Virus record (IMG/VR): IMGVR_UViG_2690315929_000005
Span: 1 to 64,000 of that record
Length of the DNA stretch: 64,000 nt
DNA from: an uncultured virus (IMG/VR IMGVR_UViG_2690315929_000005)
Taxonomy: Duplodnaviria > Heunggongvirae > Uroviricota > Caudoviricetes
Reading direction: 5' to 3' (one strand)
Shown: one piece after another, positions 20,065 to 64,000 of the stretch
Layout: each line of letters begins with the position of its first letter
How positions within the stretch are numbered: the stretch's first letter is position 1
Program-made: the position numbers and the translations under genes
Notes under the pieces: generated by a model
The model's database searches: none
Told to the model about the DNA's origin: nothing
Seen by the model: the letters and a program-made list of their open reading frames with translations, nothing else

Positions 20065-20078
20065 GTATCTAAAATCCG

Positions 20079-46254: not shown

Positions 46255-46330
46255 ATGGGACGAATTTGGGACAAGCAACATGAAGCAGCATAAGGCAACT
46301 TCAAGTAACTTTAGGTAAGGTGGGACGTGT
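46255..46330. promoter_or_regulatory. Probable integrase arm-binding sites of the prophage attR
   Basis: TGGGACGAATTTGGGAC and GTGGGACG match TGGGACGTATTTGGGAC at 29-45 within the int 3' end. Confidence 0.6.
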
Positions 46331-46381
46331 GAACGCTTGGTGAGACTGTATTTAGTTGATATTAAAGCATAATTCTACGCT

Positions 46382-46426
46382 CTTCTAAGCCGTAGGTCAC
46401 AGGTTCGAATCCTGTAGGGCGTACCA
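46382..46426 (+). other. 3' fragment of tRNA-Arg(UCU): prophage attR core and probable satellite attL
   Basis: CTTCTAA anticodon loop, T arm GGTTCGAATCC and CCA end; the 5' half with the D arm is absent. Confidence 0.88.
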
Positions 46427-46591
46427 TTCTCAAGTATTTTAACGTCTACAACAGTCCATAAAATCCTTATAAAATCAGCTATTACAAGAATTCCTAGTAT
46501 TTCAAGGTCTAGTTACGTCTATTGAAATCTACATATATGTGGGGGCATAATTGGGGGCATTATCCCGTTCAATGAAAATTGGTGCCCCCAG

Positions 46592-47803
46592 ATGAAGCTA
46601 ACAGCCAGACAAGTAGAGACTTCCAAGCCAAAAGAGAAAGCTTATAAACTTTCTGACGGAGGGGGCATGTATTTAGAAGTTGCTCCGAATGGTTCTAAGT
46701 ATTGGCGTATGAAATATAGATATGCTGGTAAAGAGAAAAGGCTGGCTTTAGGTGTATACCCATCAATATCACTCGCACAAGCTAGGGCGAAGAGAGAAGA
46801 AGCCAAGCGCATATTAGCGTTAGGTGATGATCCATCTTTAGTGAAGAAAGCAGAAAAGAGAGAGAAAGAATCTCAAGTAAATAATAGCTTTGAAAAAATT
46901 ACGCTTGAATGGCATGACTATAAAAAGCCGAATTGGTCAAAAGGTTATGCGGATGATTTACTAGAAGCCTTCCAGAAAGATATCTTTCCTTATATTGGTA
47001 AAGTTAGCATTACAGAAATTAAACCGTTAGATATGTTAGAAGTGCTTCGGAAGTTAGAAAAACGCGGTGTGTTGGATAAGCTTAAAAAGATAAGGCAGGC
47101 ATGTAACCAAGTATTCCGCTATGCAATTGTGACAGGACGGGCTGAGTATAATCCCGCATCAGAATTAGCCGGCGCACTGTCTACTCCAAAAGCTAAGCAT
47201 TTTCCTCACTTAAATGTGAATGAGTTACCTGAGTTTTTACAGGCACTATCTGTATGTAGTGGAAGTAAGATCACTCAGATTGCGACAAAGCTATTAATGA
47301 TAACAGGCGTTCGTACTATTGAGCTTAGAGCTGCTGAATGGTCAGAAATTGATTTTGATAAAGCTATTTGGGAAATTCCAAAAGAACGTATGAAAATGCG
47401 TCGCCCTCACATGGTGCCATTATCTACACAGGCCTTAGAATTATTCAAAGAAATACAAACCATAACAGGAAAGTTTAAGTATATCTTTCATGGTAGGAAT
47501 GATGCTTCTAAACCAATGAGTGAAGCGGCCATAAATCAGGTTATCAAGCGTATTGGTTATGATGGTAGAGCCACAGGTCACGGATTCAGACATACAATGA
47601 GCACCATCCTGCACGAACAAGGCTATAACACTGCATGGATTGAGACTCAACTTGCACACGTTGATAAAAACTCTATTCGTGGAACGTATAACCATGCTCA
47701 GTATATTGATGGCCGTAGAGAAATGCTTCAATGGTACGCTGATTATATGGATACTTTAGAGAGCGGGGATAATGTTGTCCACGGTAACTTTAAACGTGCT
47801 TAA
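46592..47803 (+). CDS. int: P4-family tyrosine integrase
   Basis: KLSDGGGMYL.V...GSKYWR.KYR, HGFRHTMST.L, QLAH, YNHA; GGGGGCAT arm-type repeats at 46541-46560. Confidence 0.96.
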   Translation: MKLTARQVETSKPKEKAYKLSDGGGMYLEVAPNGSKYWRMKYRYAGKEKRLALGVYPSISLAQARAKREEAKRILALGDDPSLVKKAEKREKESQVNNSFEKITLEWHDYKKPNWSKGYADDLLEAFQKDIFPYIGKVSITEIKPLDMLEVLRKLEKRGVLDKLKKIRQACNQVFRYAIVTGRAEYNPASELAGALSTPKAKHFPHLNVNELPEFLQALSVCSGSKITQIATKLLMITGVRTIELRAAEWSEIDFDKAIWEIPKERMKMRRPHMVPLSTQALELFKEIQTITGKFKYIFHGRNDASKPMSEAAINQVIKRIGYDGRATGHGFRHTMSTILHEQGYNTAWIETQLAHVDKNSIRGTYNHAQYIDGRREMLQWYADYMDTLESGDNVVHGNFKRA

Positions 47804-48830: not shown

Positions 48831-48983
48831 ATCAGTTTATTATTGAGATTGTTTTATTTTAAACAACAAGCCCCCACTCAAAAAACACCTTAAAATATAA
48901 ACCATAATATGCGTTATTAACCTTATACATTTATGTATAGGGTTTTTTCGCATGTCTTTTCATATCACATTAAGGAAAATACT

Positions 48984-49181
48984 ATGAATAATCTGATTAG
49001 GCTTTCAGAGGTTTTGCGACGCACAGGTTACAGCAAAGCTTGGATTTATAGACTAATTAAAGAAAATGACTTTCCTAAACAAGTCAAAATAGGAGCTCGT
49101 TCTATTGCTTTTGTTGAATCAGAAGTAGATGAATGGATTGCTAATAAGATTGCTGAATCACGTTCTGGTGAGGTGGCATAA
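48984..49181 (+). CDS. alpA: AlpA-family regulator/excisionase
   Basis: LIRLSEVLRRTGYSKAWIYRLI....FPKQVKIG.RSIAFVESEVDEWI. Confidence 0.93.
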   Translation: MNNLIRLSEVLRRTGYSKAWIYRLIKENDFPKQVKIGARSIAFVESEVDEWIANKIAESRSGEVA

Positions 49182-49576
49182 TGAAAAAGAAAAACCACCC
49201 ATCACAGGTGGCTTCTCAGAATAACGTAGCGTCGTCTATTCTATCAAAGAACCCACCTAAAAAACACCGTGCCCGTTTATATATGTTAGGTACTGGCATT
49301 AATGGCTTTACCGAGAATGAAATATTAATTCATTGCCGTTTATCGTCAGGCCGTAATTACCCAAATGAATTAGAGCGTTTATTGAATATCGAACTAGAAC
49401 GCATTGATGAGCCTAATCCTGATGGTATCGGATCACATTATCGTTACCGCTTTAAAACGGCTCAAGATGTGCAGAAGGTTATTAACTTAATAAATAAACG
49501 TGCTGAACAAGGTAATTACCAACCCATAGATAACGCACTCATAAATAATATTTTAAGCCTGTACCCGACAAAATAA
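49181..49576 (+). CDS. Hypothetical satellite protein
   Basis: Coupled to alpA. Confidence 0.7.
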   Translation: MKKKNHPSQVASQNNVASSILSKNPPKKHRARLYMLGTGINGFTENEILIHCRLSSGRNYPNELERLLNIELERIDEPNPDGIGSHYRYRFKTAQDVQKVINLINKRAEQGNYQPIDNALINNILSLYPTK

Positions 49577-49588
49577 CGGAATAAAAAA

Positions 49589-50422
49589 ATGAAACTAAAA
49601 AATAACAGCTTAAATGCTGGTGGATTCGCTCACCCTGAAAACCACTCTAGCGATATTAAGGAATTATCTTTTGCTGAAATGCTGCCAGTAATTCAGGGAA
49701 ATATTAACGGGCAGATTATTAATGCAGTAAGTGCCAAAGCATTACACGAAGCATTAAGTGTAGGTCGTGATTTTTCTACTTGGATTATTGGCCGTGTTAA
49801 TGAATACGCTTTTGTGGAAGGAACGGATTATCAATCAGATGATGACTTTAATATTCGCTGCTTACTTAATGAACAATATTCCCCCGTTTTGGGGAATAAT
49901 ACAAAACGTGGTCGCCCTGAAAAGGATTACTTATTAACGCTAGGCATGGCTAAAGAATTGGCAATGGTTGAACGTACCGAAAAAGGGCGCTTAATCCGGC
50001 AATACTTTATCAAGTGTGAGGAAGCTCTACACAAAGTCGCGCCAACAATCACTAAGCAGTTACGGCATCAACTTAAATCACGCCTCAAAGTGGCTAGTTA
50101 CTTTAAGCCGATGTGTTCAGCGTTAGAGCTAGCACGTATGGAGCAAGGCAAAAGCACACTACCGCACCACTACACAACTGAGTCAAACATGCTTAACCGA
50201 ATTGTGTTAGGTGGACTCACTGCCAAAGCATGGGCGAAGCAGAACGGCATTATTGGCAATCCCCGTGATGCTATGAGCGAAACCCAATTAGAGCACCTTT
50301 CATACCTTGAGCAGACGAATACAACGCTAATTGAATTAGGCATGGACTATCACGCACGCAAGGACAAGTTAATCAGTCTATCTCAAAAGTGGTTAGCGCA
50401 ACGTGTAGAGGTGGCGCAATGA
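49589..50422 (+). CDS. AntA/AntB antirepressor-like protein
   Basis: VSAKALH..L.VGRDFSTWI, DY.LTLGMAKELAMVER...G..IRQYFI.CE. Confidence 0.9.
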   Translation: MKLKNNSLNAGGFAHPENHSSDIKELSFAEMLPVIQGNINGQIINAVSAKALHEALSVGRDFSTWIIGRVNEYAFVEGTDYQSDDDFNIRCLLNEQYSPVLGNNTKRGRPEKDYLLTLGMAKELAMVERTEKGRLIRQYFIKCEEALHKVAPTITKQLRHQLKSRLKVASYFKPMCSALELARMEQGKSTLPHHYTTESNMLNRIVLGGLTAKAWAKQNGIIGNPRDAMSETQLEHLSYLEQTNTTLIELGMDYHARKDKLISLSQKWLAQRVEVAQ

Positions 50423-51360
50423 TTACCCTATGTTCAATAAAGGATATTGCCTACCAAGTGAATAATTCTCTACTGGCAGGTAATAACGTAAGTTCAACTT
50501 ACACCACGACTAATACGGTAGCTTTAAACTATGGTATTACGGGCAGTCAATCAGCGAAAATTTACGCCAATCAATCAATCCTAACCACCGTTGGAGGATG
50601 GGATAACAGCGATAACCTAAAACGTGGAGAATTTACACCATTTATTAAAGGTGATTTTTCTCACCTTTCTAAAGTCGGGAAATCTCGCTATTTATCGAGT
50701 GAAATTGAGTTTTTACAGTCCATAAAAAAGGGCGGCCAATCGGCTACCCTTGGGAACGTCGATATTAAATACCGAGCAAGTGAGAACTATAAGAATAGTA
50801 TTCATCTTGTTATCGGTAAAGATGACAACCTTGAGTTAATACAAAAATGTGCAATACATCACTTGCACTTATGGGTAATTGTTGGCTATAGTGATCAGGC
50901 ACTAGCAAAATCTAGTGTCAGGATTGGCGTTCTGAATTTGTACAAGGCGACACATGACGCGCCTAGCGTCTTTTTTTGTGTCAATGCCTACGCACACCTA
51001 TTAAATGCGGTATTATATCGCACCGAATCTATGGTGGCGGCAGCAGAGCAACCGAAAGGTTGGCTGGTTTCCTTGTACGCCAGTAACGCCAACTCTACTG
51101 TCGTCACCACCCCCGAAATTGGCGTTTCTGGTGGTGACTCCTTAGTATTGTACAAGGAGATCATCGTTATGATGGCAACCCCTACCCAAACTCAATTCAA
51201 ATTTTTGTTTCTGAGTATTAAACGTTCAGATACAACTGCTAAGCCTTGCCGTATCACTATTACCGCACCGAATGAACACGATGCAAGACTGATGCTTGTA
51301 CGTGATTATATCCTGTCATTCGCTGGTCGCTTACCTGTTAAGGAGGTGGCTCATGCGTAA
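50419..51360 (+). CDS. Ash-family long ORF spanning the c4 RNA and ending in icd
   Basis: GYS...AKS..RIGVLN, SMV....QPKGW.VS; in frame with icd. Confidence 0.6.
   Translation: MITLCSIKDIAYQVNNSLLAGNNVSSTYTTTNTVALNYGITGSQSAKIYANQSILTTVGGWDNSDNLKRGEFTPFIKGDFSHLSKVGKSRYLSSEIEFLQSIKKGGQSATLGNVDIKYRASENYKNSIHLVIGKDDNLELIQKCAIHHLHLWVIVGYSDQALAKSSVRIGVLNLYKATHDAPSVFFCVNAYAHLLNAVLYRTESMVAAAEQPKGWLVSLYASNANSTVVTTPEIGVSGGDSLVLYKEIIVMMATPTQTQFKFLFLSIKRSDTTAKPCRITITAPNEHDARLMLVRDYILSFAGRLPVKEVAHA
51031..51110 (+). ncRNA. C4/P4 CI-type antisense immunity RNA
   Basis: Multi-stem RNA whose CCTTGTAC and ACGCCAA are complementary to GTACAAGG/TTGGCGT upstream (50924, 50940) and downstream (51119, 51150 over the icd RBS). 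Confidence 0.85.
51169..51360 (+). CDS. icd: Icd-like host cell division inhibitor
   Basis: MATPTQTQFKFLF...A.NE.DAR..L.RDYILSFAGRLPV; RBS overlapped by a c4 target. Confidence 0.8.
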   Translation: MMATPTQTQFKFLFLSIKRSDTTAKPCRITITAPNEHDARLMLVRDYILSFAGRLPVKEVAHA

Positions 51361-51526
51361 TCCTCAACCTAACGATTTCTACACGCATAAAAATAATAGC
51401 GAAACCGCCAAAGTTCTATCGGTTCAATTCAACCGTGTGACCTTTCAGCGAGACGGCTTTGATAGTCCTGTCATTGTTCCATTAAGCCAGTTCAGCAACG
51501 AATACACCTATGCAGGGAGGGCTTAA
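51353..51526 (+). CDS. DUF4222-like protein
   Basis: PQPNDFY...V....NRVTF.RDGF..P...P...F...YT. Confidence 0.7.
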   Translation: MRNPQPNDFYTHKNNSETAKVLSVQFNRVTFQRDGFDSPVIVPLSQFSNEYTYAGRA

Positions 51527-51528
51527 TT

Positions 51529-51786
51529 ATGGGGCGTTATCCAGAAAACTATAAGCGTATTCAAGCCGAAATTTCGAACATGTTAGGCAATGACCTCCTT
51601 TTATCTTCAGAAGAACGTAGCCGTGACCGATTACTTAGGGTTCGAAAAGGTATGGCTCATATTCTTAGTGAAGTATTTCCTCTAATTGATGATCCCAAAA
51701 AACAAGAACTCTATTACTGGTTGGAAGCCATTAGCCGTATCAGTGGCGCAGAAGCCGTAGACGCTAAATCGAAGGGGGAAGCATGA
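51529..51786 (+). CDS. Hypothetical satellite protein
   Basis: ORF with RBS in operon. Confidence 0.6.
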   Translation: MGRYPENYKRIQAEISNMLGNDLLLSSEERSRDRLLRVRKGMAHILSEVFPLIDDPKKQELYYWLEAISRISGAEAVDAKSKGEA

Positions 51787-51962
51787 GCAAACCTATTCCA
51801 TTGGACATAGCTGCATACAAGGCGCAGCAAAATAATTCATTACTTGCCGTTATCTTAGAGTTAGCAAGTAAAGATTGTTCGCGGGAGTTAATCGACCTCG
51901 TTTCTATTGCGTATGACTTTAATGCGGAAATATGTGAATCCCTCGAGGAGGCGACCAAATGA
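51783..51962 (+). CDS. Hypothetical satellite protein
   Basis: MSKPIPLDIAAYKA...; ATGA overlaps at both ends. Confidence 0.6.
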   Translation: MSKPIPLDIAAYKAQQNNSLLAVILELASKDCSRELIDLVSIAYDFNAEICESLEEATK

Positions 51963-52168
51963 AAACAATCAAATTAAATGTTGGTCACTTATCTACCTTG
52001 GAAGAAGTCGAACACATCAACGAAGAACTTCAAGCGTTGTTAATCCCGCTGTTAACAGCTGTAGAGAATGAAGCTGAGACGGATACGCATTTTATGCTGA
52101 GAGCAGTCAACCGCTTAGTGTGTGCTCAAGGAAAAGAAATCACAAAGTTGGTGGAGGTGATGAAATGA
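51959..52168 (+). CDS. Hypothetical satellite protein
   Basis: Translationally coupled ORF. Confidence 0.6.
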   Translation: MKTIKLNVGHLSTLEEVEHINEELQALLIPLLTAVENEAETDTHFMLRAVNRLVCAQGKEITKLVEVMK

Positions 52169-52776
52169 GACAAGTCACTATCAATGCCACCAGCTTAAGT
52201 CCATTCATGTATCAAGGTAAGCGAGTTGTCACCTTTGCCATGATTGACGAGGTACACCAACGCCCAACAGGTGCGGCTAGAAAATCATTCAATGCTCACC
52301 GTCAATATTTTACTGAGGGTAAGGATTTTTACCGCCTAACTGGACAGGATTTAGAACTGTTTAAACTTTGCGCGTCCATAAAACGGACGCACAAATATTC
52401 ACCCATTAGTGATAAAGCCCGAGAAGTAACACTGATTACTGAATCGGGATACTTGCTAACCGTGAAGCCATTTAATGATCCACTTTCTTGGCAGGTACAA
52501 AACCAGCTTATCGATGCATATTTTCGACTGTCTGAATTCCCTGAATTACAGCACATCAACATACCCACACTGGCAGAACTTGAAGCCATGCCAATTGGTG
52601 AGGCTCAGAACTTGATTAGCCGCTTAGAGGCTGATTCTTATCAAGGGCACGGTAGGCGTGGCAGCTATGCCATGAACCTACGTCGCAAAGAGAAGAAAGC
52701 ACTTAAACCAATGGTAATCGCCATTGAGCAAGCCTCGCAGCTACACATTCAGGATATGGGAGATTATCGCTCATGA
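52165..52776 (+). CDS. ORF6N-domain DNA-binding protein
   Basis: YQGKRVVTFAMIDEVHQRP.G.AR..FN, LITESGYLL.VKPF.D.LSWQVQ..L..AYF. Confidence 0.85.
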   Translation: MRQVTINATSLSPFMYQGKRVVTFAMIDEVHQRPTGAARKSFNAHRQYFTEGKDFYRLTGQDLELFKLCASIKRTHKYSPISDKAREVTLITESGYLLTVKPFNDPLSWQVQNQLIDAYFRLSEFPELQHINIPTLAELEAMPIGEAQNLISRLEADSYQGHGRRGSYAMNLRRKEKKALKPMVIAIEQASQLHIQDMGDYRS

Positions 52777-52946
52777 GAACGTTTCTAATTGCAGGTTATG
52801 GCACAACACTAAAAGGCCTAACACTAGGCATTAACAAGCAAGTGATATCTGCCAGCCTAAAAGATGCTCAGTCACAAGTGGTGCGAGAGGCGCAACGTGA
52901 CGGTTTAATTGATATCCGAATCAACTATGCGCGTGAGGTGAAGTAA
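52773..52946 (+). CDS. Hypothetical satellite protein
   Basis: 57-aa coupled ORF MRTFLIAGYG... Confidence 0.55.
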   Translation: MRTFLIAGYGTTLKGLTLGINKQVISASLKDAQSQVVREAQRDGLIDIRINYAREVK

Positions 52947-53140
52947 TGACGCAAGAACAGAAACGTGAAATAGAGCAATTACTAGAACCGCACCAGTTAA
53001 AAGTATTAATGCTAATCACCTTACTTTCTACGTGGTTGGAAGCAGAGGAATGCGATGAAACCAGAAACATGATCTGGGCTGTATTGACTGTTGTTTATTC
53101 AATTAGGGATGAAATGAACGAAGCAGTAGAGGGTAAGTAA
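52946..53140 (+). CDS. Hypothetical satellite protein
   Basis: Translationally coupled ORF. Confidence 0.6.
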   Translation: MTQEQKREIEQLLEPHQLKVLMLITLLSTWLEAEECDETRNMIWAVLTVVYSIRDEMNEAVEGK

Positions 53141-53736
53141 TGAATATTTCTAATATTAACGCATTCGAACACAGTGAACAGGGTGTGATCCTCATTACTG
53201 AAGCAGCCAACCAAGAGGCTATCAGCTATACCGAAGCATTAGAGGTATTAAACGATGGTAGCTTTGATGGTGATCTGATTTTTGGCTTTGAATTGGTTTT
53301 AGCTATCTGCAAGGGAGAGTGTGACGGCTTTTTTAATCCAACTAATCAGCAGCGTGTGATCTTGTGGCGTTGGATTGTAGCCGCTTCGTTTGTCGCAGAG
53401 CAAGCAGACAATAACGGGACGCATCAAGTTGACAACGGCAGAGGTAAAACCATTACCGCCGCTATTTATCGCAACAAACATGCAACGTTAACCGTCTATG
53501 CCGCAAGCGAACGTATGTTACTAGCTAATCACATTGAGGGCGCTGCTTATGAGCACTATGGGGCAGAGAATGGCGCAATTATGGCAGTAAAGATATATAG
53601 GGATTTTATCAATCTTGAGCCTAAACGCGGTTGCCGACTATCAGAACGAGGGCGTGAGGGGTTATCTGTTCTTCATGATGATCTAATTAGGGCGATAGAA
53701 GATGGTGAATTTAGCGACACCGTAACCATTCATTAA
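53140..53736 (+). CDS. Hypothetical satellite protein
   Basis: 198-aa coupled ORF. Confidence 0.65.
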   Translation: MNISNINAFEHSEQGVILITEAANQEAISYTEALEVLNDGSFDGDLIFGFELVLAICKGECDGFFNPTNQQRVILWRWIVAASFVAEQADNNGTHQVDNGRGKTITAAIYRNKHATLTVYAASERMLLANHIEGAAYEHYGAENGAIMAVKIYRDFINLEPKRGCRLSERGREGLSVLHDDLIRAIEDGEFSDTVTIH

Positions 53737-53750: not shown

Positions 53751-54095
53751 ATGATAACGAAGAATTTTAAAGTTAATTCACTAGCGAATAGCTACGCAGC
53801 TGCTATTTACCACGATATTACCACACGTAATGGCGGTGATTGGTTTTCGATGAAGGTAGGCAACAAAACGATTGAAGTTGCCATTATTGACGGTGTGAAA
53901 GGTATTCGAATGCTCGTTGATAGCTATTTGCTGAAAGCCTTAAAAGGGCAATATCCCACATGGGAGGCAGTTGCTATTGGCTTGATAGAGCAATGTGTCA
54001 TTAATGGATATGTCACAGGTTATGGTCGAGAGGTGTGGCAAAGCATGATTAATGATATGGGCGACTCTTTCGCTGATAAGGGGGCGTTTCAATGA
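53751..54095 (+). CDS. Hypothetical satellite protein
   Basis: ORF directly before the primase. Confidence 0.65.
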   Translation: MITKNFKVNSLANSYAAAIYHDITTRNGGDWFSMKVGNKTIEVAIIDGVKGIRMLVDSYLLKALKGQYPTWEAVAIGLIEQCVINGYVTGYGREVWQSMINDMGDSFADKGAFQ

Positions 54096-56812
54096 AGCCG
54101 ATTGATGTTATCCGTGAGGTGAAGCTGAAAGCTAACGGACAATGGCAAGCTATATTATCTCACCTTGGGGCAGAAGTGCCCCTAAACACGCACACGGCTT
54201 GCCCTCATTGTGGTGGTAAAGACCGGTTTAGATTTGATAACAAGGACGGTAATGGCACGTTTATTTGTAATCAGTGCGGTTCTGGTGATGGATTAGATCT
54301 CGTTCAGCGTGTGTTAGGTGTCAGTGTAACCGAAGCTGCAAAAGAAGTTGCTAACATAATTGGTATTGATACCCGTTCAGCGTGTCCACCAGCCTACCGT
54401 CGTTCTGAGATAAAAGCACAACAAGACGAACTGAAAGCGCAGCAAGCCGAAAAACAAGCTAACGAGAAGAGAGAGAAGCATAAACGCTTTATTGAACGGT
54501 ATAACCGCACTATTGCCAATGTTCAACGTGGGAGATCTGACTATCTCAAGGCTAAGGGGCTGCATGGTTTTGAAATGGATTTATTACAGGACGGTTCTCT
54601 TATCATTCCATTATTGGACGCTGGTGGCGTTATTACTGGCGCACAAACTATTAAGCCTAATGGTGATAAGCGTTTGCTGTCAGATAGCGCAAAGTCAGGC
54701 AGTTATTACCCCATCAATGAGCCTGTAAACGTCTCTACGGTGATTATCGCTGAAGGATTAGCAACCGCCCTAACGTGTCACTTAATCCAACCAGAAGCGC
54801 ACACAGTTGCGGCAATTGATGCGGGAAACCTCATTCATGTAGCTAAGGTAATGCGAGTTAAGTATCCAGAGAGCAAGATTATTATTGCTGGGGATAACGA
54901 TATTAAGCCAGGCCAAGACAATACAGGGAAATTAGCGGCAGAAAAGGCAGCTAAGGTGGTTAATGGTGTCGCTGTTTTACCCCCTACTGATGATAAAGCC
55001 GATTGGGATGACTACCGCCTATCACACGGTATTGAGGCGGCAAGACAGGCATTTAATGAAATATTAGAGCAGCAAGGAGGCAAGGTGATGATAGAAACTA
55101 GGGTAAGCAATGAAGTCGTTAAACCTGACCCAATGAAGCCACGCATTGAATCACGTAAAGAGGGGGTATTTCTTGTTACACCGAAAGCCGACAAGGAAAC
55201 AGGGGAAATCATCAATCATGAGCAGTGGTTATCAAATGCTATCAAGCGGATCACTAAAGGTGTTAATGACCTCAATCAAGAGTATTTGATTATTGAGTGG
55301 GGGAATAACAATGTTCAGGCAATACCGACAGGCGATATAGGAGAGCGTGAAGGATGGCGCACATTAAAAAACGCGGGGTTATTTGTCACTACCAAATCAG
55401 GATTAAGACAGTCGTTTTCTGATTGGCTGTTACGTCAACCATTCAAAGAGGACTGGAGTATTACGAATAAATCAGGTTGGCACAAAGGCGCATATATCAT
55501 GCCCGATGGTTCAATTATCGGCACACCTGAACAACCGATATTTTTTAACGGACAAAGCGCAGCAGCAACTGCCTACAAAGCAAGTGGAACGGTGGAAAGC
55601 TGGCGAAATGATGTAGCGCGATTGGCTAACGGTAATAGTTTTATGATGTTTACGATTGGCGCCGCATTATCTGCACCGATGACGAGTCTTACGGGGGCTG
55701 ACAGCTTTGGTATTCACATTTACGCTCAATCGACAGCAGGGAAAAGTACCACGGCAGATATGGCCGTGAGTTTATACGGTGATCCTGATTTACAGCGCTT
55801 AACATGGTATGGCACTGAATACGGTATGACTAACGAAGCTGTAGCGCACAATGACGGACTTTTGTATTTGGATGAAGTCGGACAAGGGGCAGACCCTAAA
55901 CACGTCTACAAATCGGCTTACACGCTGTTTAATGGTAAAGGTAAGATCCAAGGTGCGAAGGAGGGCGGCAATAGGCAAGTTCAAAGCTGGCGGACAGTGG
56001 CCATTAGTACAGGAGAAAAGGATATTGAGACCTTTTTATTAAGTTCGGGTGTGAAAGTCAATGCAGGGCAGCTAGTACGATTACTCAACATCCCTATTGA
56101 ACGCGCCACTGAACTACATGAATGTGAAACAGGGAAAGCCCACGCAGATTTAATTAAGATAAATTGCCGTTCTAGCTATGGGGCCGCAGGACGTTATTGG
56201 ATTGAATATCTATCAAATCATAAAGATGAAGCTAAAGAAGCCTATAGAACTGCACAACAACGCTGGAGTAAATTAATTCCGAGCAGTTACGGAGAACAAG
56301 TTCATCGAGCCAGTGATCGATTCGCTACTATAGAAGCGGCTTTGATAATGGGCCGTGTGATTACTGGCTGGAATGAACAAGATTGTAAGGATGCTGTTCA
56401 AGCCGCGTTTAACGCTTGGATTGCTGAGTTCGGCACAGGTAATAAAGAGATTGAACAGATTAAAGATCAGACGATCGCTTTTTTAAGTACGTATGGAATG
56501 AGTCGATTTGCTCCATTGCCTTATGATGAGCAATCTTTACCTATCAGAGAACTTGCAGGGTACAGAGTTAAATCAAACACGCAGGATGAAGCGCCCATAT
56601 TATTTTATACATTGCCAACAGTATTTAAGAACGAGATAGCCAAAACGTTCAATACGGACACTTTCGCTGATGCCCTGCATAAACTAGGTATTTTAAAAAA
56701 GCCTTCCAATGGGAAAGGATATCAAGGCAGAACACCGCGTTTGAAACATTTAGGCAACATTCAGCAACGCGCCTATATTTTGATGCTTGTTCCTGATGAA
56801 GAGGAGGAGTGA
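54092..56812 (+). CDS. Primase-helicase (Zn-binding, TOPRIM, DUF927)
   Basis: CPHCGGKDRFR...C.QCG.GDG, EG.ATA, AGDND, STAGKST, LDE. Confidence 0.93.
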   Translation: MKPIDVIREVKLKANGQWQAILSHLGAEVPLNTHTACPHCGGKDRFRFDNKDGNGTFICNQCGSGDGLDLVQRVLGVSVTEAAKEVANIIGIDTRSACPPAYRRSEIKAQQDELKAQQAEKQANEKREKHKRFIERYNRTIANVQRGRSDYLKAKGLHGFEMDLLQDGSLIIPLLDAGGVITGAQTIKPNGDKRLLSDSAKSGSYYPINEPVNVSTVIIAEGLATALTCHLIQPEAHTVAAIDAGNLIHVAKVMRVKYPESKIIIAGDNDIKPGQDNTGKLAAEKAAKVVNGVAVLPPTDDKADWDDYRLSHGIEAARQAFNEILEQQGGKVMIETRVSNEVVKPDPMKPRIESRKEGVFLVTPKADKETGEIINHEQWLSNAIKRITKGVNDLNQEYLIIEWGNNNVQAIPTGDIGEREGWRTLKNAGLFVTTKSGLRQSFSDWLLRQPFKEDWSITNKSGWHKGAYIMPDGSIIGTPEQPIFFNGQSAAATAYKASGTVESWRNDVARLANGNSFMMFTIGAALSAPMTSLTGADSFGIHIYAQSTAGKSTTADMAVSLYGDPDLQRLTWYGTEYGMTNEAVAHNDGLLYLDEVGQGADPKHVYKSAYTLFNGKGKIQGAKEGGNRQVQSWRTVAISTGEKDIETFLLSSGVKVNAGQLVRLLNIPIERATELHECETGKAHADLIKINCRSSYGAAGRYWIEYLSNHKDEAKEAYRTAQQRWSKLIPSSYGEQVHRASDRFATIEAALIMGRVITGWNEQDCKDAVQAAFNAWIAEFGTGNKEIEQIKDQTIAFLSTYGMSRFAPLPYDEQSLPIRELAGYRVKSNTQDEAPILFYTLPTVFKNEIAKTFNTDTFADALHKLGILKKPSNGKGYQGRTPRLKHLGNIQQRAYILMLVPDEEEE

Positions 56813-57222: not shown

Positions 57223-57268
57223 CCCTGATCGCGTATCTAATAAAAAGTTTTTTGAGGAAAAAGAAATA

Positions 57269-57723
57269 ATGGTCAGAGTGACTTTCTTATTAAGAAAAGA
57301 TAACAATAATGTAACCCCCCCCCACCAGCAACGAACACACCAAAAAGCGCACGGACTAAAAGGTCACAGGAAGCCTCAAAGCAATCGAAGAAGAAAAATA
57401 AGGCAGATGCTCACGCTAAAAAGAAACAATACCGTATCGACCGTATAGCGAAGCACTGGACGATATTTAATGAACCAGAGGCTAAACCACTGATGATAGG
57501 CATCAAGGAAGTCATGATTGCTGAGGTTAAAGATAAAGGGTTGGATATTCCAGAGAGCCATATTAAACAGGGATTACGATCATACATTAGTCGTAAAACC
57601 TATCTAAAAGCTCTTACTCTGGGCGGTAATCGTTTTGATATGAACGGGCGTCCTAAAGGAGAAATCACACCTCAACAACAAGCATTAGCAAAACAAATGC
57701 TGGTGGAATGGGCTAAAAAATAG
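57269..57723 (+). pseudogene. FinO/ProQ-domain RNA chaperone, frameshifted at a C9 tract
   Basis: KPLMIGI...LRSY....YLKAL..G..RFDMNG.P.GEIT; ATG 57269 with RBS is out of frame unless the tract is C10. Confidence 0.75.
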
Positions 57724-57797: not shown

Positions 57798-58310
57798 ATG
57801 AAAAAAATCATGATAACGGCTCTATTGGCTTTATTTTTATCGGGATGTGATAACAACCCGCCAGCACCCTACGGGTTTAAGTGGGGGCAGACTGTGGCGG
57901 ATATACAAAAATTAAATATTGCTGGCGCTAGCGAGTGCAAAGACCCAGCTTGCTCTATTATGGTAACACCTAGCGGAGCACATGGATTAACAACATTAAT
58001 TTTCTATAAAGATTCAGGATTGGCACAAGTGGTACACTCAGGGCCACTGAACGAAACCAACAAAGATGATGTAATGGCAAGGTTTAATCATATTAGTAAT
58101 GAGTTGAAATCAATTTATGGTAATCCAACCAGTGAAATAATACGTATTGATGATGAGAATAACTTTATTGACTGTTTAAAACAAATTAGCTGTAGAGATA
58201 TCAAGGCAGAATATAACAAAGATGGTTATCGGGCATTTATCTCAATAGGAACGAGAAAAAAAGACGGGAGATTATTCATTTTCACCGATCACCAAAGACC
58301 TCTAAAATAA
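57798..58310 (+). CDS. Lipoprotein of unknown function
   Basis: MKK...LSG-C lipobox; followed by a terminator at 58322-58346. Confidence 0.8.
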   Translation: MKKIMITALLALFLSGCDNNPPAPYGFKWGQTVADIQKLNIAGASECKDPACSIMVTPSGAHGLTTLIFYKDSGLAQVVHSGPLNETNKDDVMARFNHISNELKSIYGNPTSEIIRIDDENNFIDCLKQISCRDIKAEYNKDGYRAFISIGTRKKDGRLFIFTDHQRPLK

Positions 58311-58481
58311 GCTATACAAACAAGCCGACCTTGAGTCGGTTTTTTGTTCTTATAGCCCCTATCATATTAATTTTTATAGAAATCTCCCTGTTTTATAGTC
58401 GTTTGTATTAATCAATTATTGATTATTTTTTAATCCATTATATAATTGTATTGTATATAATTACAGGTTGGATAAATAAAC

Positions 58482-58655
58482 ATGAGTAAGCAAAAAAGAA
58501 CCTTCAAGCCAGTGTCAATTGATAGTGAAATAATAGAACGCGTCAAAAAGTTTAAAGAAAAACAGGGTGAAAAAGATTTTTTCATTCAACGAGCACCTAT
58601 TAGTCAATTAATTCAAGGGTTACTAATTAATGCCTTACATAACGAGGGATTCTAA
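58482..58655 (+). CDS. Small putative DNA-binding protein (possible ribbon-helix-helix)
   Basis: MSKQKRTFKPVSIDSEIIERVKKF...ISQLIQGLL; coupled to the next gene. Confidence 0.55.
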   Translation: MSKQKRTFKPVSIDSEIIERVKKFKEKQGEKDFFIQRAPISQLIQGLLINALHNEGF

Positions 58656-58996
58656 TGGAAAAATTACAACGGTTAGCAAGCACTATAGCCCAGATTTATG
58701 TTGATAATTTAAAAGCTGAAACAGGAGAAACATTAGTAACTTATAACGGTATCACAGGTAAAGTTACCCCTGAATTACTGGCCGCTGGATTGTTTGATAA
58801 TGCGGTATTTGCGGTTAAAGCGGATGGAGAAGAGATTGACGTTGAAGGTAAGGCGTATGATTTACTATCCCCGTTAATTAACTTATCAACAAAGCCTTAC
58901 TCCCTAACGGGACAGGCATATAAATTGATTAATTTTCTCAATGTGCAGGCACTAAAAGCAGGAAGCACTTTATCAACCTTATCAGTTGTACATTAA
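58655..58996 (+). CDS. Hypothetical protein upstream of the satellite tape measure gene
   Basis: 113-aa ORF. Confidence 0.65.
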   Translation: MEKLQRLASTIAQIYVDNLKAETGETLVTYNGITGKVTPELLAAGLFDNAVFAVKADGEEIDVEGKAYDLLSPLINLSTKPYSLTGQAYKLINFLNVQALKAGSTLSTLSVVH

Positions 58997-59012
58997 TCAC
59001 AGGGAGAAAATT

Positions 59013-62000
59013 ATGTATCATGGCGAAGGTTACACAGTATATGTAGATGCCGATACGGCCGGCCTTCTTGAGGCTAACCGTGAAATCGAAAAAGCAAGAA
59101 GAAAAATAAATGATTTAGGCAACGAAGCAAACACCACAAGCAAATCATTTACTCAATTCAATAAATCAGCAATCGCGGTTTCCAGTGCGTTAAAAATGCC
59201 TGAAATAAACCGCTTATCACGTCAAATGAGTGAATTGGCGGGGCAAATTGGCGCTGCTTCAATGGCAACAGATAAGGCAACGACTGTTAACGCGCGTTTT
59301 ACAGGTGTGATTAGCAATGTGTCTGGGCTACTAGGGGCGGGATATGTTTCTAATATTGGTAGCGCTACTGTTTCGCTCTTGCAACATACTCAAGGGGCAA
59401 TTAATGCCACACAAGCCGAGGTTTTACATACTCGCGCTATTCAAATGAAGGCTCAGGCATTGCAAGCTGCTGCCTCCCAAGAAGTGATTAACGCCAAAAA
59501 TCTTAAAGCATCAACACAAGCAGAGCTAAAAGCAGCTCAGGCAGCGTTAGAACACGTTTATTCATTAGAAGGCTCTAATGATATCAAGCAGCGTAATTTA
59601 GAGTCACTTAGGGCACGACAGGCAGCAGTGCTCAAGGATGCTGAAATAACTTATCAAATGACTGCGAGTGAAGAAAATTTGCAGCGAGTGACTAAAGCCA
59701 GTAATGCGCTACATGCTACGGAAACTAAAATAAAAACGCATTTAGCTACAACCGGAAAAGAAATTGCGCTTGTTGAGGCTAGAGTCGCTAAAGCAAAAGA
59801 AGCAGAAACACTAGCAACTCAAAAATTAAATGCGGCATTAGCATTAGAGCAAAAAGCGAAAGCCACACTAGCCACTACAACAGACGCGGTGACCGTAGCT
59901 AATGGTCGCGCAGCCCAAGCGGCTAGAAGTCAATCCATTGCTATGCAAGGATTGCGAGGTGTTGTGGGGTTATTAGGTGGCCCAACGGGTGTTTTTATGT
60001 TGGCTACTGCTGGCGTGTATGCGCTATATAACGCGATGAATGATGACACCGCAACGAAAGAGTTTAATGACAGAGTAGATCAGTGGATTGATAAAATTGA
60101 CGAACTGTCAGCCAAACAGGCTCGCGCTGTGGCTAACCGCTTAGGCGAGAAGATAGCGGAAACAACCACACAACTAGAGGGACAGAAAAAAAGTCTTTCC
60201 AGTGTTAATTCAGATCTAAAAAGATATGAAAATAGACTTGCTGATATTAATAAAGAGATTCAAAGACAAAAAGAACAAGGTTTTGAAGTAGGTAAGTCTT
60301 ACGTTCAGGATGATATAGTAAAGGAAATCGAAAAACTCACCAAGAAACAGCAGCAGTATGAGCTGATTATTTCAGAAGGTGAGCAGAATATTCGTCGCTG
60401 GACGGTATCACAAGGTAAAGCCGCTAATATTGCAAAAGAGAGAGCAAAACAAACAGACGAACTCAGCAGAGCGGAATTAATTTATCAACGCCAAGCTAAA
60501 GGGATAGTTGATGCTAACCAACAATTAGCTAGATCACTAGAGCTAGGCAGTGACGCAGCCGTTAAGAAAGAACAAGCCATCAAAGAGTTAGAAAAGGCTT
60601 TAATTGCTGATGGTTTTGTTAAAGACTCCGAGTTATTTAAACAAAAAATACAAGAGTTAACGGATGAGCTTGATAAGAAGGCAAGTTTAAACCTTGCTAA
60701 CTCTCTTGCTGAGATAGAGCAACGAACACAAGCCCTCACTATTGGCATGAAAGACGGTAAGCCTGCACTGGATGAATACAATGCCTCGTTACTGCTTATG
60801 CAAATGGGGATAAAAAAAGGTTCGGCTACCTACAATACCGAACTCCCGAAAGCGATAGAGGCAATACGCAATTTACGTGAAGCTCAAGAAGCCGCACTAA
60901 ATAGCAAATCAAATGCTAACAAGTCGTTGAAAGCGATTAATAAGGCAAATGATGCCATTAAAAAACAACAGCAACAGACTGAGACGTTAAGAAAAGAATT
61001 TGAATTATTGAGTTCTGGCGCAGCTAACGTAAATAGAGAGATGGCTATTTTTAACGCTGTTCAAAGTCTGGGTGCTGATGCGACAGACAAGCAAAAGAAA
61101 GCTATTGCTAAAGAAGTCGCCGAAGTTTTTGACCTCAAACAAAAAGTCGATGACTTTATTAAGTCGCAAGAAATTACTCCAGAGTTAAAACTTGCAAGAG
61201 CATTTAGACAAGAATCTGAAGAGCTTAAACGCATGTTTGATAATGATTTCATTGATGAAGAAACGTTTAAGGCGTTAGGCAATAAAGCAATGAAGGCATT
61301 TGATGCTGGAATGGCTGAAATAAAAATAAACGCGGTTATTGACCCAATAACTGAAGCCAAAGGGCAATACGACCCGATACAAGCACTGGCTAACGAACAC
61401 GCTAAGAAACTTGAGATGATCCGCCAATTCGAAACAGAAAAAGGCGCTATTACTCAGCGTGGCTTAGAGTTAATGAATGCCGCTAATACTCAATATGAGC
61501 AAGACCGGTTAAATGCTCAATGGGAGATATGGCGCAATCAAAGCCAAGCCAATCAATTCTTAGCTGATGGGTTGGACGCATTAGGACAGCGCTCTACTAA
61601 CGTACTCACAGGGCTATTAACTCAAACACAATCCATTAACGATGCTTTCCGTAATGTCGCCTTAACCATCGTAGACCAAGCCGTTGGCGCTCTGGTCCAA
61701 ATGGGTATGCAACAAGTTAAGAATATGATTATGGGTGAAAGTATGGCGACAGCCGCTCAAGCATCTGCATTGGCTCAGGCTGCGGCAGCACAAGCGGCAT
61801 GGGCACCAGCGGCATTAAGCGCATCAATAGCCACATTAGGCGCAGCAGTAGCAACGGGAACATCATCATATACGGCGGCTATGGCAGCTAGTAAAACGAT
61901 GGGGTTGGTTGCTGGTGCTCGTAAAAATGGTGGACCCGTAAATGCTGGCTCTATGTATCGAGTGGGTGAAGGTGGTAAGCCTGAGATATTCAAAGCATCT

Positions 62001-62243
62001 AACGGTAGTCAGTACATGATACCGGGTGATAATGGTCGAGTTATTAGCAATCGACAAATGGGTAAAGGTGGTAATGGTGTCAGCATGGGTGATATGAACT
62101 TTACATTCCAAGTTCAAGCACCTAATGGCATTACTCAAAAGGAGGCGCAACAAATACAGCAAATGGTGAGAGGTACGGTTTATGACGTACTTGGTAACGA
62201 AATGCGTAGCGGTGGTGCTTTGGAAAAAGTAAGAAGTTGGTAA
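59013..62243 (+). CDS. Satellite-encoded tape measure protein
   Basis: 1076 aa from the ATG with GGAG RBS; shares LGGP.GV.MLA, DPIQ.L.NE.AKKL and AGARKNGGPV.AGSMYRVGEGGKPEIFKA blocks with the prophage TMP. Confidence 0.88.
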   Translation: MYHGEGYTVYVDADTAGLLEANREIEKARRKINDLGNEANTTSKSFTQFNKSAIAVSSALKMPEINRLSRQMSELAGQIGAASMATDKATTVNARFTGVISNVSGLLGAGYVSNIGSATVSLLQHTQGAINATQAEVLHTRAIQMKAQALQAAASQEVINAKNLKASTQAELKAAQAALEHVYSLEGSNDIKQRNLESLRARQAAVLKDAEITYQMTASEENLQRVTKASNALHATETKIKTHLATTGKEIALVEARVAKAKEAETLATQKLNAALALEQKAKATLATTTDAVTVANGRAAQAARSQSIAMQGLRGVVGLLGGPTGVFMLATAGVYALYNAMNDDTATKEFNDRVDQWIDKIDELSAKQARAVANRLGEKIAETTTQLEGQKKSLSSVNSDLKRYENRLADINKEIQRQKEQGFEVGKSYVQDDIVKEIEKLTKKQQQYELIISEGEQNIRRWTVSQGKAANIAKERAKQTDELSRAELIYQRQAKGIVDANQQLARSLELGSDAAVKKEQAIKELEKALIADGFVKDSELFKQKIQELTDELDKKASLNLANSLAEIEQRTQALTIGMKDGKPALDEYNASLLLMQMGIKKGSATYNTELPKAIEAIRNLREAQEAALNSKSNANKSLKAINKANDAIKKQQQQTETLRKEFELLSSGAANVNREMAIFNAVQSLGADATDKQKKAIAKEVAEVFDLKQKVDDFIKSQEITPELKLARAFRQESEELKRMFDNDFIDEETFKALGNKAMKAFDAGMAEIKINAVIDPITEAKGQYDPIQALANEHAKKLEMIRQFETEKGAITQRGLELMNAANTQYEQDRLNAQWEIWRNQSQANQFLADGLDALGQRSTNVLTGLLTQTQSINDAFRNVALTIVDQAVGALVQMGMQQVKNMIMGESMATAAQASALAQAAAAQAAWAPAALSASIATLGAAVATGTSSYTAAMAASKTMGLVAGARKNGGPVNAGSMYRVGEGGKPEIFKASNGSQYMIPGDNGRVISNRQMGKGGNGVSMGDMNFTFQVQAPNGITQKEAQQIQQMVRGTVYDVLGNEMRSGGALEKVRSW

Positions 62244-62309
62244 TTAAAAGCGTGGATAAAAACCATAATAGGGCAGATTTCTGCCCTTTATAGTATTGAA
62301 GGGTACATA

Positions 62310-62678
62310 ATGATAAAGATAAAAGTATCTAAAAGGAAAGGTCGCAATCAATCATTTCTACAATATTGCCAGCATGTAGATCAACGAGTATCACGGGCTA
62401 TGCAACGGTTTCTTTTCGATGCTGGAGCACAATCCGCAATTTATACGCCTATCGATACATCAACATTGATTAATAGTCAGTTTAGGGATGTTACTGTTAA
62501 TGGTACAAAAATAACGGGACGTATTGGTTACTCCGCCAGCTATGCCGTTTATGTGCATGATCCGAAAGTTAAGCAGAAATTTAAACGACCAACAGCTAAA
62601 AAAGAGTTCTTGAAAAAAGCGGTCGAGGAAACGCTACCTAATTTAACTAAGTATATTCATGAAGAATTGAAGAGTTAG
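62310..62678 (+). CDS. Satellite-encoded HK97 gp10-like neck/tail-completion protein
   Basis: AIYTPIDTSTLINSQFR.VTVNGT..TGR.GY.A.YAVYVHDP..KQ.F shared with 32114-32482. Confidence 0.88.
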   Translation: MIKIKVSKRKGRNQSFLQYCQHVDQRVSRAMQRFLFDAGAQSAIYTPIDTSTLINSQFRDVTVNGTKITGRIGYSASYAVYVHDPKVKQKFKRPTAKKEFLKKAVEETLPNLTKYIHEELKS

Positions 62679-62685
62679 CCTTCAT

Positions 62686-62705
62686 ACTTTCGTGAACAGT
62701 ACGCG
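62686..62705 (+). promoter_or_regulatory. Putative pac-site copy
   Basis: ACTTTCGTGAACAGTACGCG is identical to 24561-24580 inside the prophage terS. Confidence 0.65.
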
Positions 62706-63043
62706 CGTGGAAGGAAATATGCAAAAAACAACCAAAAAGAAACCAACCATTATTTTTATGATGTACCGACAATGCGCCTAATTGTGACGTGTGAACAATC
62801 CATCAACATTCACATAAGAGCCGATAGAGTAACAGGGGCAATCATGAGGAGTTTGTGAGGCAAGCAATCATTGAGAAGCTAAAAAAAAGCAACAGCACAA
62901 ATAGCTAAATCGCTATATGTATGTGTCAATAACTTGGTTATAGCTATATATATTGTGTTTACGTTAAAAAAATAGACAGGTAATTACAAGCTCATAATGA
63001 TTAGCCCCTAGACAAGATAAATATATTCAGTATTATTTATCCC

Positions 63044-63113
63044 AACAGTGCCCCTCATAACCTCTACGTAGAACGGAGAAATCTGGTTTGCGATACGTTT
63101 GGGGCTTTCTTTT
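63044..63113 (+). ncRNA. Abi-associated structured RNA, candidate antitoxin
   Basis: GCCCC...GGGGC closing stem plus U-rich tail, between a TAGACA-16-TATTAT promoter-like sequence and the abi start. Confidence 0.65.
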
Positions 63114-63143
63114 ATCTACTATCTGATAATTTTCCATGCTGCT

Positions 63144-64000
63144 ATGCACCCTCTAAAACCTCATCTAACGTATTTTGACCAAATAAAAAAGCTAGAAAAA
63201 CGAGGAATGAGTTTTGAGGATCTACCTCCTGAGCAGGCGGTAAAGAAAATAATGAATATTGGATATTACAGGCTATCTGGGTATTGGTATCCATTCCGTA
63301 AGTTAAAGTTAATCCCACCAGTAGCACCCGATGAAGCCAGACGTGAAGAAACATTCCTTGAGGGTACAACCTTTACAACGGTATACGCACACTATTTATT
63401 TGATGTAAAACTAAGAAGTTCTATTTTTTATGGAATAGAACGAATTGAAACTTATCTTAAAGCAAAAATAGCTTACGAACTAGGTAAAGTATCCCCTACG
63501 GCATACAAAGATAAGAATATCATCCAATACAGACATCACTACCGACATGATACATGGCTAGAAAAGTTAGATTCTTTAATAGAGCGAAATAGTGATAAAG
63601 ATTGTATACGATGGAATTTAGATAAGTATGGGGATATTCCTATATGGGCTATCGTTGATATTTGGGATTTCGGTACAATGTCTCGCTTCTACGGAATGCT
63701 TGAAGATAAATACAAACATCAAATTTGTAAATCGCTTGGCTTTCTAAAGCCTAACTCAGCAAATGTAAGAGATGGACTGAAAACAGCATTAGAGCACCTT
63801 AATACAGTTAGAAACAGGTGTGCCCACCATGCGCGTTTATGGAATACCGATTTTTCAGACTCAAAAATTAGCATCGATGTGTTAGATAATATTGATTTAA
63901 CAGCCTCGCGCTTGTCTCCAAAAAGCCCTGAACTATCAAGAATGGCAGGTATCATATTTTTAATATGGAGTCTGACCAAGAGAATAAGTTGTAATTCTAC
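63144..64000 (+). CDS. Abi_2 (AbiD/AbiF-like) HEPN abortive-infection protein; runs off the window end and is missing from the ORF track
   Basis: KPHLTYFDQI..L.KRGM, IGYYRLSGYW, YLFD.KLR...IE.IE, PIW...DFG..S, HEPN motif RNRCAHH. Confidence 0.9.
   Translation, partial: MHPLKPHLTYFDQIKKLEKRGMSFEDLPPEQAVKKIMNIGYYRLSGYWYPFRKLKLIPPVAPDEARREETFLEGTTFTTVYAHYLFDVKLRSSIFYGIERIETYLKAKIAYELGKVSPTAYKDKNIIQYRHHYRHDTWLEKLDSLIERNSDKDCIRWNLDKYGDIPIWAIVDIWDFGTMSRFYGMLEDKYKHQICKSLGFLKPNSANVRDGLKTALEHLNTVRNRCAHHARLWNTDFSDSKISIDVLDNIDLTASRLSPKSPELSRMAGIIFLIWSLTKRISCNS

Follow-up and report, generated by a model that had tools for sequence, protein, structure and literature searches.

A family of capsid-less Enterobacterales satellites that carry their own tape measure protein and probably travel in chimeric siphophage tails

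The PLEs of Vibrio cholerae build chimeric tails, and tmp genes, which encode tape measure proteins (TMPs), are also present in PLE-like elements and in some cf-PICIs (PMC12987554). In that report, tail remodelling by a satellite is proven for the PLEs only and its reason is left open. An earlier note on the DNA studied here took as known that P4- and PICI-type satellites use helper tails, a premise overtaken by the TMP-bearing satellites already in print (PMC12987554, PMC12822802, 10.64898/2026.10.15.759431). Here we analyze a stretch of 64,000 nucleotides from an uncultured virus (IMG/VR IMGVR_UViG_2690315929_000005, positions 1 to 64,000; hereafter, the window), in which a complete-looking siphoprophage (about 1-46427) is followed by a second element whose first gene, encoding a P4-type integrase, comes after the 3' part of a tRNA-Arg. 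This second element is a satellite with genes for a TMP and a tail completion protein (TCP), and its gene content makes it likely that it travels in chimeric tails as the Vibrio PLEs do, probably with self-exclusion.

Like the PLEs, the element and its relatives have a satellite TMP to be used with helper tail parts, a TAC+TMP pair (in the sister elements G426-G428) and a short copy of a putative helper packaging signal (PMC12987554, PMC11417361). Set against the tmp+tac(+bhuB) cluster of the PLEs, the window holds TMP+TCP, and TAC+TMP is present in those sister elements. The helper of the PLEs is a lytic myophage, and their additions are TAC and BhuB, whereas here temperate siphophages are the likely helpers, the partner is a TCP and the backbone is P4/PICI-like. 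Neither capsid-size nor Gps-type packaging genes were recognised in the element, and the chimera, proven in the PLEs, is one that we infer here. The SUSP1 "F5" satellites of E. coli are also capsid-less, belong to Enterobacterales and have a TMP among their only structural genes (10.64898/2026.10.15.759431); they differ in their baseplate-protein partner, in having replication genes in 2.7% of members and in the smaller capsids seen with them, whereas a primase-helicase and an AlpA/Ash arm are core here. The EPIPs of Mycolicibacterium are TMP-encoding satellites with altered tails, but they carry TerS, a head-tail adaptor/stopper, a scaffold and a serine integrase, and a TCP is unmentioned in the available text (PMC12822802). 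No report of a TMP+TCP satellite family was found in the literature searched, where the relevant papers were those on PLE, EPIP, Tai, Tab and F5; members may nevertheless be listed among the accessions of Extended Data Fig. 10 (PMC12987554) or in the SatelliteFinder tables. The family offers a second, independent system beside the PLEs, with temperate siphophage helpers and a natural allele series. The features on which the argument turns are the following.

57798..58310, plus strand: lipoprotein whose body has four divergent alleles behind a conserved signal/lipobox; proposed, as a candidate, to partner the TMP in superinfection exclusion
58655..58996, plus strand: orf113 (phrog_19131), family marker directly before the TMP gene (structure model, pLDDT 87)
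59013..62243, plus strand: TMP of 1076 amino acids (aa), with a satellite-type N-terminus, a hydrophobic helix at about 317-335, a hypervariable segment at about 390-440 and a helper-matched C-terminal third
60951..62250, plus strand: tract exchanged with the TMP genes of prophages (DNA identity 96.5% to L017 over 1.3 kb, and 88-90% to 12 more prophages)
62310..62678, plus strand: TCP of 122 aa (Neck1/HK97 gp10-like; phrog_5, E 1e-11) with a rewritten basic N-terminal helix

In the mechanism that we propose, the heads, terminase, tail tube, chaperone and tail tip would be borrowed from a co-resident temperate siphophage, while the lumen of the tail would be self-supplied. After excision and replication, the helper terminase would begin headful packaging at decoys, and each head would take about two copies of the element, so that no head shrinking would be needed. 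The satellite TMP would dock on the helper tip through its matched C-terminus and template the helper tube, and the TCP, like gp51 of phage 80alpha, would cap the N-terminal ends of the TMP and the end of the DNA. The entry conduit on infection would consist of the satellite TMP, which, because its middle differs from that of helper TMPs, may evade helper-lysogen exclusion proteins and TMP-targeting defences; the co-varying lipoprotein would probably exclude particles with the same TMP allele.

The TMP gene starts at ATG 59013, with purine-rich bases like a ribosome-binding site upstream (the mechanical open reading frame, or ORF, from TTG 58986 has 1085 aa), and its product matches phrog_1107 (TMP) with E 3e-131. 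It is 33% identical over 821 aa to the TMP of the neighbouring prophage (34925-38332), and the TCP is 58% identical over 97 aa to the product of 32114-32482. The earlier note's description of the locus stands: both genes are intact homologs of prophage genes; the differences in the TMP C-terminal block are mostly synonymous in intact frames (17 synonymous and 4 nonsynonymous between 61911-62035 and 37991-38115, at 83% identity over 125 bp); the QLSQG and SGVLRGEEFNS motifs, together with Pfam TMP_3, are in the prophage TMP and not in the satellite TMP; and the two genes, 2.44 kb apart in the phage, lie 66 bp apart and in reverse order in the satellite. The dN/dS comparison that it called for yields 0.14-0.40 for the whole TMP gene (nine pairs with the window) and, for the TCP, 0.06-0.20 in four divergent pairs with the window and 0.05-0.16 in six second-clade pairs, values that speak against neutral decay. 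A whole TMP is present in 10 of 11 Proteus/Providencia loci and in 36 of 37 loci of the second clade, described below. By these ratios, TMP and TCP are kept under purifying selection. The further 5.6 kb of contig right of the window, where the note had allowed for a structural operon, contains none.

The C-terminal end of the TMP carries information on the helper. In 80alpha, the TMP C-termini bind the tip protein (10.1101/2024.12.10.627806), so the end of the satellite TMP must fit the helper tip. The exchanged tract stops 7 bp past the TMP stop codon. For the last 80 aa, identity is 92-99% in 26 of the 38 rows of phage TMPs (one duplicate pair) and 34% in the neighbouring prophage. These phages were retrieved by searching with the satellite TMP itself, a bias toward matching sequences that weakens the case for tip matching. 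Between 250 and 80 aa from the end there are two allele classes, each common to satellites and phages at 98-100%, so that TMP exchange occurred more than once. Two co-resident satellite/prophage pairs (L006/L011 and L005/L013) match at 99% in the C-terminus. The matching prophages examined have lambda-type M-L-K-I-J tips, Pfam-confirmed for L016, and the tip genes of the neighbouring prophage are of another type (DUF1833/NlpC/822-aa hub).

The earlier note took this neighbour for the matching tail helper. Adjacency would favour that view, as would the exact 20-mer decoy held by its terS and a tube and chaperone 90-100% identical to those of most lambda-tip prophages. The 34% C-terminus and the different tip genes nevertheless make it very unlikely that the prophage at 1-46427 is the cognate tail helper. 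The satellite adjoins it because both use the same tRNA-Arg site, and elsewhere it lies beside an unrelated prophage (G008) or, in run X1, without any prophage at the site. The neighbour is thus probably not the tail donor; it may be a supplier of heads, its terS holding the 20-mer copied at 62686-62705. A prediction of tails about 5% shorter fell with the same assumption, since the TMPs of the matching prophages (six listed) have 1048-1109 aa and tail length would barely change. Across L008-L032 and the window prophage, we also observe that the tube and a DUF6246 chaperone are 90-100% identical while head modules, TerS types, TMP halves and tail tips are shuffled.

At the other end of the tail, the TCP of 80alpha, named the equivalent of HK97 gp10, is a monomer that forms a sheet and a superhelix with three TMP N-termini and caps the DNA (10.1101/2024.12.10.627806), and SPP1 gp16.1 is required for head-tail joining and DNA routing (PMC11099176). 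The satellite TCP resembles 80alpha gp51, SPP1 gp16.1 and HK97 gp10 in belonging to phrog_5, in the genomic position of the gene in related phages and in predicted layout; it differs in its rewritten N-terminal helix and in lying after the TMP gene, outside a late operon. Overall 43-55% identical to phage copies, it shares 20-26% identity with phage TCPs in residues 1-35 and 57-80% in residues 36-95, while phage-phage pairs reach 60-66% in residues 1-35. The first 40 residues of the TMP are likewise 25% identical even to phage TMPs with 55-58% identity over residues 41-250, and TCP-less members mostly keep phage-like TMP starts, as judged by eye. From these parallel changes, we infer that the satellite TMP and TCP form an orthogonal pair. 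In a tree with 18 phage TCPs, those of satellites fall into two well-supported, long-branched clades separate from the phage proteins, and a single origin is neither shown nor rejected (87/90). The TCP model is of low confidence (pLDDT 63) and has the helix-hairpin-helix layout of 80alpha gp51; in the fold search, 9mu2_P appears at rank 38 among unrelated helical matches (Z 4.8, rmsd 4.4, 77 aligned). If real, the rewritten TMP-TCP interface would be a ready test of the role of a poorly understood tail-completion protein.

Evidence that the satellite TMP may enter cells comes from the lipoprotein gene. Its homologs are hypothetical lipoproteins of Providencia and Proteus, and its four alleles (22-55% identity between alleles) pair across genera with TMP residues of about 390-440, the part just after the hydrophobic helix where, in the closest elements, the otherwise nearly invariant first 690 TMP residues vary. 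The TMP segment allele is common to 9 of 10 same-allele lipoprotein pairs vs 0 of 35 other pairs (permutation p 0.0002; 0.03 once identical elements are collapsed), and the proteins encoded between lipoprotein and segment share 98-100% identity in the six closest elements. A different lipoprotein, in the second clade, lies upstream in all 14 loci of segment allele 1 that could be scored (one more is cut by a contig start) and in none of 13 with allele 2, where only an Imm_superinfect gene occupies the lipoprotein position; the loci are related, and these counts overstate independence. The pairing holds there across different TMP N-termini. Among prophages with one type of TMP, the gene upstream also goes with the segment in 13 of 14. 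TMP changes overcome exclusion by Ltp and by HK97 gp15 (PMC10883804). The lipoprotein would resemble Ltp (TP-J34) and HK97 gp15 as an envelope protein with TMP-tied specificity (PMC10883804), its link to the TMP being one of co-variation. This pattern suggests that the lipoprotein and the TMP segment are an exclusion pair, both the direction and the very existence of exclusion being read from it. Such a pair, if real, means that the satellite TMP is really injected, and it would point to a determinant of about 50 residues for the specificity of DNA entry and exclusion.

The earlier note had proposed a capsid-less satellite that either builds hybrid tails or poisons helper tail assembly. The satellite and the selection on its genes are borne out, and hybrid tails fit best. 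As a dominant negative, the satellite TMP would occupy helper tips, or the TCP would plug necks, or both; the helper particles made would be dead, the population would be protected and the satellite would move only in leftover normal tails. A matched C-terminus on a foreign N-terminus is also what a poison might look like, and tail-blocking defences are found in PICIs and prophages (Tai, Tab, Rta), of which Tai and Tab block tails (PMC11364771, PMC10884400). The known blockers seen, however, are separate proteins rather than full-length TMPs (Rta has 80 aa), whereas here the whole TMP is under purifying selection and a partner TCP is kept, or a chaperone in other cassettes. In addition, the element would have no other route to tails, and lipoprotein co-variation, which a dominant negative explains poorly, is sensible only if the TMP enters a cell envelope. 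We therefore consider a poison unlikely.

Chimeric tails could also serve self-rescue, with orf113 or another satellite gene acting as an Rta/Tab-like blocker of helper TMPs and the satellite TMP as the resistant substitute. PLE11 offers a precedent (PMC12987554), and orf113 is small, has no fold match and stands directly before the TMP gene in the orf113-type members examined. This reading is quite unlikely, as orf113 has no homology to a known blocker, was not found in the TAC+TMP cassettes and has a homolog in a complete phage, in the moron region upstream of the TMP gene of Klebsiella phage MK448231; moreover, the chimeric tails of PLEs do not need Rta (PMC12987554). We also considered orf113 as a tail chaperone or TerS, and found no match in Pfam, Atlas, Foldseek (PDB, BFVD) or VIA-wide (best Z 5.9), a result by which a chaperone is not excluded. 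Its 30 representatives at E<=0.001 show neither novelty nor absence.

The TMP search returned 44 viral loci and 7 genome loci, of which 11 have the satellite layout (one a near copy of the window contig) and the remainder are mostly prophages. The closest named relative is a Proteus myxofaciens member, with 85% TMP identity, which makes Proteus the probable host of the window element; near the right end of this member (L092:16688-19097) there is cargo with a weak Enterotoxin_a match (E 3e-5), resembling an AB-toxin ADP-ribosyltransferase, beside a small secreted ORF. Used as a marker, orf113 retrieves 37 more virus records, a second clade with 36 whole TMPs (896-1021 aa) and 35 TCPs, the misses lying at contig ends. 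Most of these second-clade members (L115-L151) keep an ORF with an HGGxSTG motif between TMP and TCP and a zinc-finger ORF of about 200 aa after it, which are candidates for packaging or late regulation. Among 401 related genomes, orf113 is present in 11, with a long TMP in nine, a truncated TMP in one and none in one. The family spans Enterobacterales. The second-clade module was found in none of 5426 complete E. coli genomes and the window's module in no plasmid record, each at 80% cover. Repeats of att bound relatives at tRNA-Arg, at tRNA-Ser and at a third site, and 27 phage queries for head, tail and terminase genes matched, in 13 att-bounded relatives of 18.9-26.6 kb, only terS/terL fragments in G223.

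Three elements at tRNA-Arg, whose integrases are 97-100% identical, hold other cassettes between the primase region and decoy 1: TAC_4 with a lambda-H-type TMP in G427 (whole) and G426 (shortened), and TAC_9 with an unrelated 714-aa TMP and a DUF7424 lipoprotein in G428. The N-terminal 200 residues of the G427 TMP are up to 88-100% identical to phage TMPs and its C-terminus is unmatched, the reverse of the window's pattern. The repeated capture of unrelated TMPs in the same slot argues that supplying a TMP is the strategy of these satellites. A broader model, possible but still doubtful, is that the tail lumen serves this widespread Enterobacterales family as a swappable cassette, in which exchange of TMP+TCP for TAC+TMP would retarget one backbone to unrelated helper families, recombination with helper genes would update the TMP C-terminus, TMP and TCP would act as an orthogonal pair that keeps assembly of the injection core separate from that of the helper, lipoproteins would define exclusion groups and decoys for several TerS families would allow terminase-free packaging.

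Several observations weigh against chimeric tails built in this way. The TCP was found in 2 of the 11 orf113 genomes (GTDB) and not in the other nine, so it is not required family-wide. The TCP of T5 lies at the tail tip and not at the neck (10.1101/2024.10.16.618446). The TMP C-termini of the second clade have at most 59% identity to non-satellite TMPs in IMG/VR and about 70% DNA identity in GenBank phages, and those of Providencia members have 21-39% identity to all sampled phages; tip matching, as far as these comparisons go, is shown for the Proteus clade only. For the lipoprotein and the TMP segment, a Spearman Mantel test gives no significant correlation (r 0.18, p 0.12), the pair of the window and L051 is discordant, L128 is an exception among the other TMP type, and in prophages of the TMP_3 type the upstream gene does not track the segment. 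The model assumes that the satellite TMP is chosen over that of the helper and that chimeric tails join satellite heads selectively, and both the chimeric particles and TMP-TCP binding are putative. Finally, the TMP is damaged or missing in four members: G007 has it split, G426 has a short form, G062 a truncated one, and G227 has lost it. Such losses would also be seen if the genes were neutral debris of a decayed prophage or a recent capture, which is nonetheless highly improbable given dN/dS well below 1, att-bounded elements with one layout at several sites, satellite TCPs in long-branch clades and unrelated TMPs filling the same slot. In G062 (L101-L102), the TMP is truncated at 210 aa and is followed by apparent genes for two-partner secretion/contact-dependent inhibition (a 3660-aa ORF).

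Copies of motifs internal to terS are candidates for packaging decoys.

62686..62705, plus strand: decoy candidate 1, 20 bp identical to nt 164-183 of the Sf6-type terS in the neighbouring prophage (24561-24580)
Contig 66307-66341, right of the window: decoy candidate 2, one octamer present three times at spacings of 15 and 12 bp, an arrangement also found within the phrog_1206 terS of lambda-tip prophages
Contig 65997-66038: related partial copy of decoy 2

The pac site of P22 lies within its terS gene (PMC9611059), and a pac mimic of 14 bp is essential to PLE (PMC11417361); where a pac site contains repeats, specific binding to them is not obligatory (PMC4737164). Decoy 1 has no match in 100 shuffles, and its 18-bp core occurs in 26 viral stretches, 14 in the Sf6-type terS family and 12 in satellites. 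The pac site of Sf6 presumably maps to about the same part of its terS. For the triple octamer of decoy 2, 80 of at least 119 matches were examined, of which 65 lie in phrog_1206 terS and 14 are non-coding, 10 of these with satellite markers; for a variant octamer, 74 of 80 lie in terS and 5 in satellites. This distribution suggests that the copies act as packaging decoys; if so, they would indicate where the pac sites of two common TerS families probably lie. The triple octamer, with its fixed 15/12 spacing and two variants, is DNA-conserved inside phrog_1206 terS across many viruses and is itself a likely pac site. Two further 27-bp stretches (contig 66244-66270 and 66894-66920) match, at 93%, prophage DNA 0.8-0.9 kb upstream of terS, possibly as additional mimics, and G223 (L169-L170) has taken up pieces of a helper terS-terL junction, from which decoys might arise.

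The remainder of the satellite is organized as follows; after the primase, the gene order is ProQ, lipoprotein, two small ORFs, TMP, phrog_5 TCP and Abi_2.

46372..46427, plus strand: 3' part of tRNA-Arg, the right att of the prophage; its last bases, 46406-46427, are the satellite attL (read from the sequence)
46592..47803, plus strand: P4-type tyrosine integrase (Pfam Arm-DNA-bind_3, Phage_int_M, Phage_integrase)
48933..53736, plus strand: regulatory arm with AlpA, AntA, Ash with isrK and C4 RNAs, DUF4222, ORF6N and small ORFs (Pfam/PHROG/Rfam)
50899-50976 and 51027-51114: isrK RNA and C4 RNA, respectively (Rfam)
54092..56812, plus strand: Zn-ribbon/Toprim/DUF927 primase-helicase (Pfam/PHROG)
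56860-57230: iteron-like repeats spotted by eye, putative origin of replication
57493..57723, plus strand: ProQ/FinO-like protein, shorter than the 132-150 aa of relatives
58482..58655, plus strand: 57-aa small protein, first gene of the conserved operon, ribbon-helix-helix-like by eye
63099..64000, plus strand: Abi_2 defence cargo (Pfam), which ends at contig 64139; the element runs on right of the window

No tRNA was detected in the window by ARAGORN, and the att sites were located by reading the sequence and its relatives. In G001-G003 and L005, the satellite att core recurs about 21 kb downstream, and in G426-G428 the distance is 18.9-20.7 kb; in the window contig, no second copy was found up to the contig end at 69610, so attR would lie beyond it. 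The integrase is 97-100% identical in Proteus-type relatives, with counterparts of 61-75% identity in other members at tRNA-Ser/Arg and one of 29% at another site. The 57-aa gene has counterparts at the same position, with a stop/start overlap, in four distant members; it is preceded by a terminator-like hairpin (58322-58342) and a promoter-like site (58419-58446), patterns whose frequency in a scan is not above chance. Among contigs from RNA runs, X3 is flat over the region and in X16 the TMP block has greater depth than the primase, although depth along a contig is not equivalent to expression; in the raw-read run X24, coverage is over the tRNA only.

This backbone shares with PICI and P4-like satellites the integrase, AlpA, Ash/epsilon and primase in the same order, insertion at a tRNA 3'-end and defence cargo (PMC10085698). 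The integrase, AlpA-type regulator and primase-replicase are in the conserved order of PICIs, and int, alpA, epsilon/ash, a primase of DUF927 type and a C4-type RNA are present as in P4-like satellites. At 19-27 kb, however, these elements exceed the medians near 10 kb of those classes (PMC10085698), and the PICI model forbids tail genes, so that SatelliteFinder may reject the window element for its TMP and TCP (PMC10085698). A PICI-type backbone with tmp is also known from cf-PICIs, but their own capsid, portal, TerL and head-tail adaptor were not found here. The scans recognised no capsid-morphogenesis gene, several small ORFs being without family, and no match to the psu-delta-sid operon among element ORFs or the conserved family ORFs scanned. 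A small terminase was not found in the element or its clade by PHROG/Pfam scans or by tblastn with seven TerS or TerS-like queries, the right end lying beyond the contig; five TCP-less members carry a TerS-like gene in the right arm (DUF5681/DUF2280 in G223, G227, G231 and G334, a homolog in G398). By gene content, the element would act as a PLE-like tail module set in a PICI/P4 backbone, and it falls outside the definitions of PICI, P4 and cf-PICI. Models that forbid tail genes in PICIs may reject elements that carry defence and other cargo in Proteus, Providencia and related genomes.

Other observations concern the flanks of the satellite and the prophage. A 75-bp element (96% identical) is present before Abi_2 (63039-63113) and just behind the Q gene of the window prophage (20074-20148) and others; considered as an antitoxin RNA or a late-control/small-RNA site, it has no Rfam match, and it travels with one cargo allele. 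The right arm of the satellite contains a 44-bp inverted copy of the prophage stretch that comes next (contig 66727-66770) and, on the minus strand (contig 65205-65640), a conserved ribbon-helix-helix-like gene of 138-143 aa with ATA where relatives have the start ATG. After the satellite core (contig 67757-69610) there are a small excisionase-like gene, a broken helix-turn-helix gene and a Beta-protein gene; in G007, the same module leads to a lambda-type integrase inside the att-bounded element, maybe a nested element. The morons of the prophage (44083-46291) encode an O-antigen acetylase of low GC and a homolog of DNA polymerase III theta, and the prophage also has a KilA-N/BstA-like gene (20338-21120).

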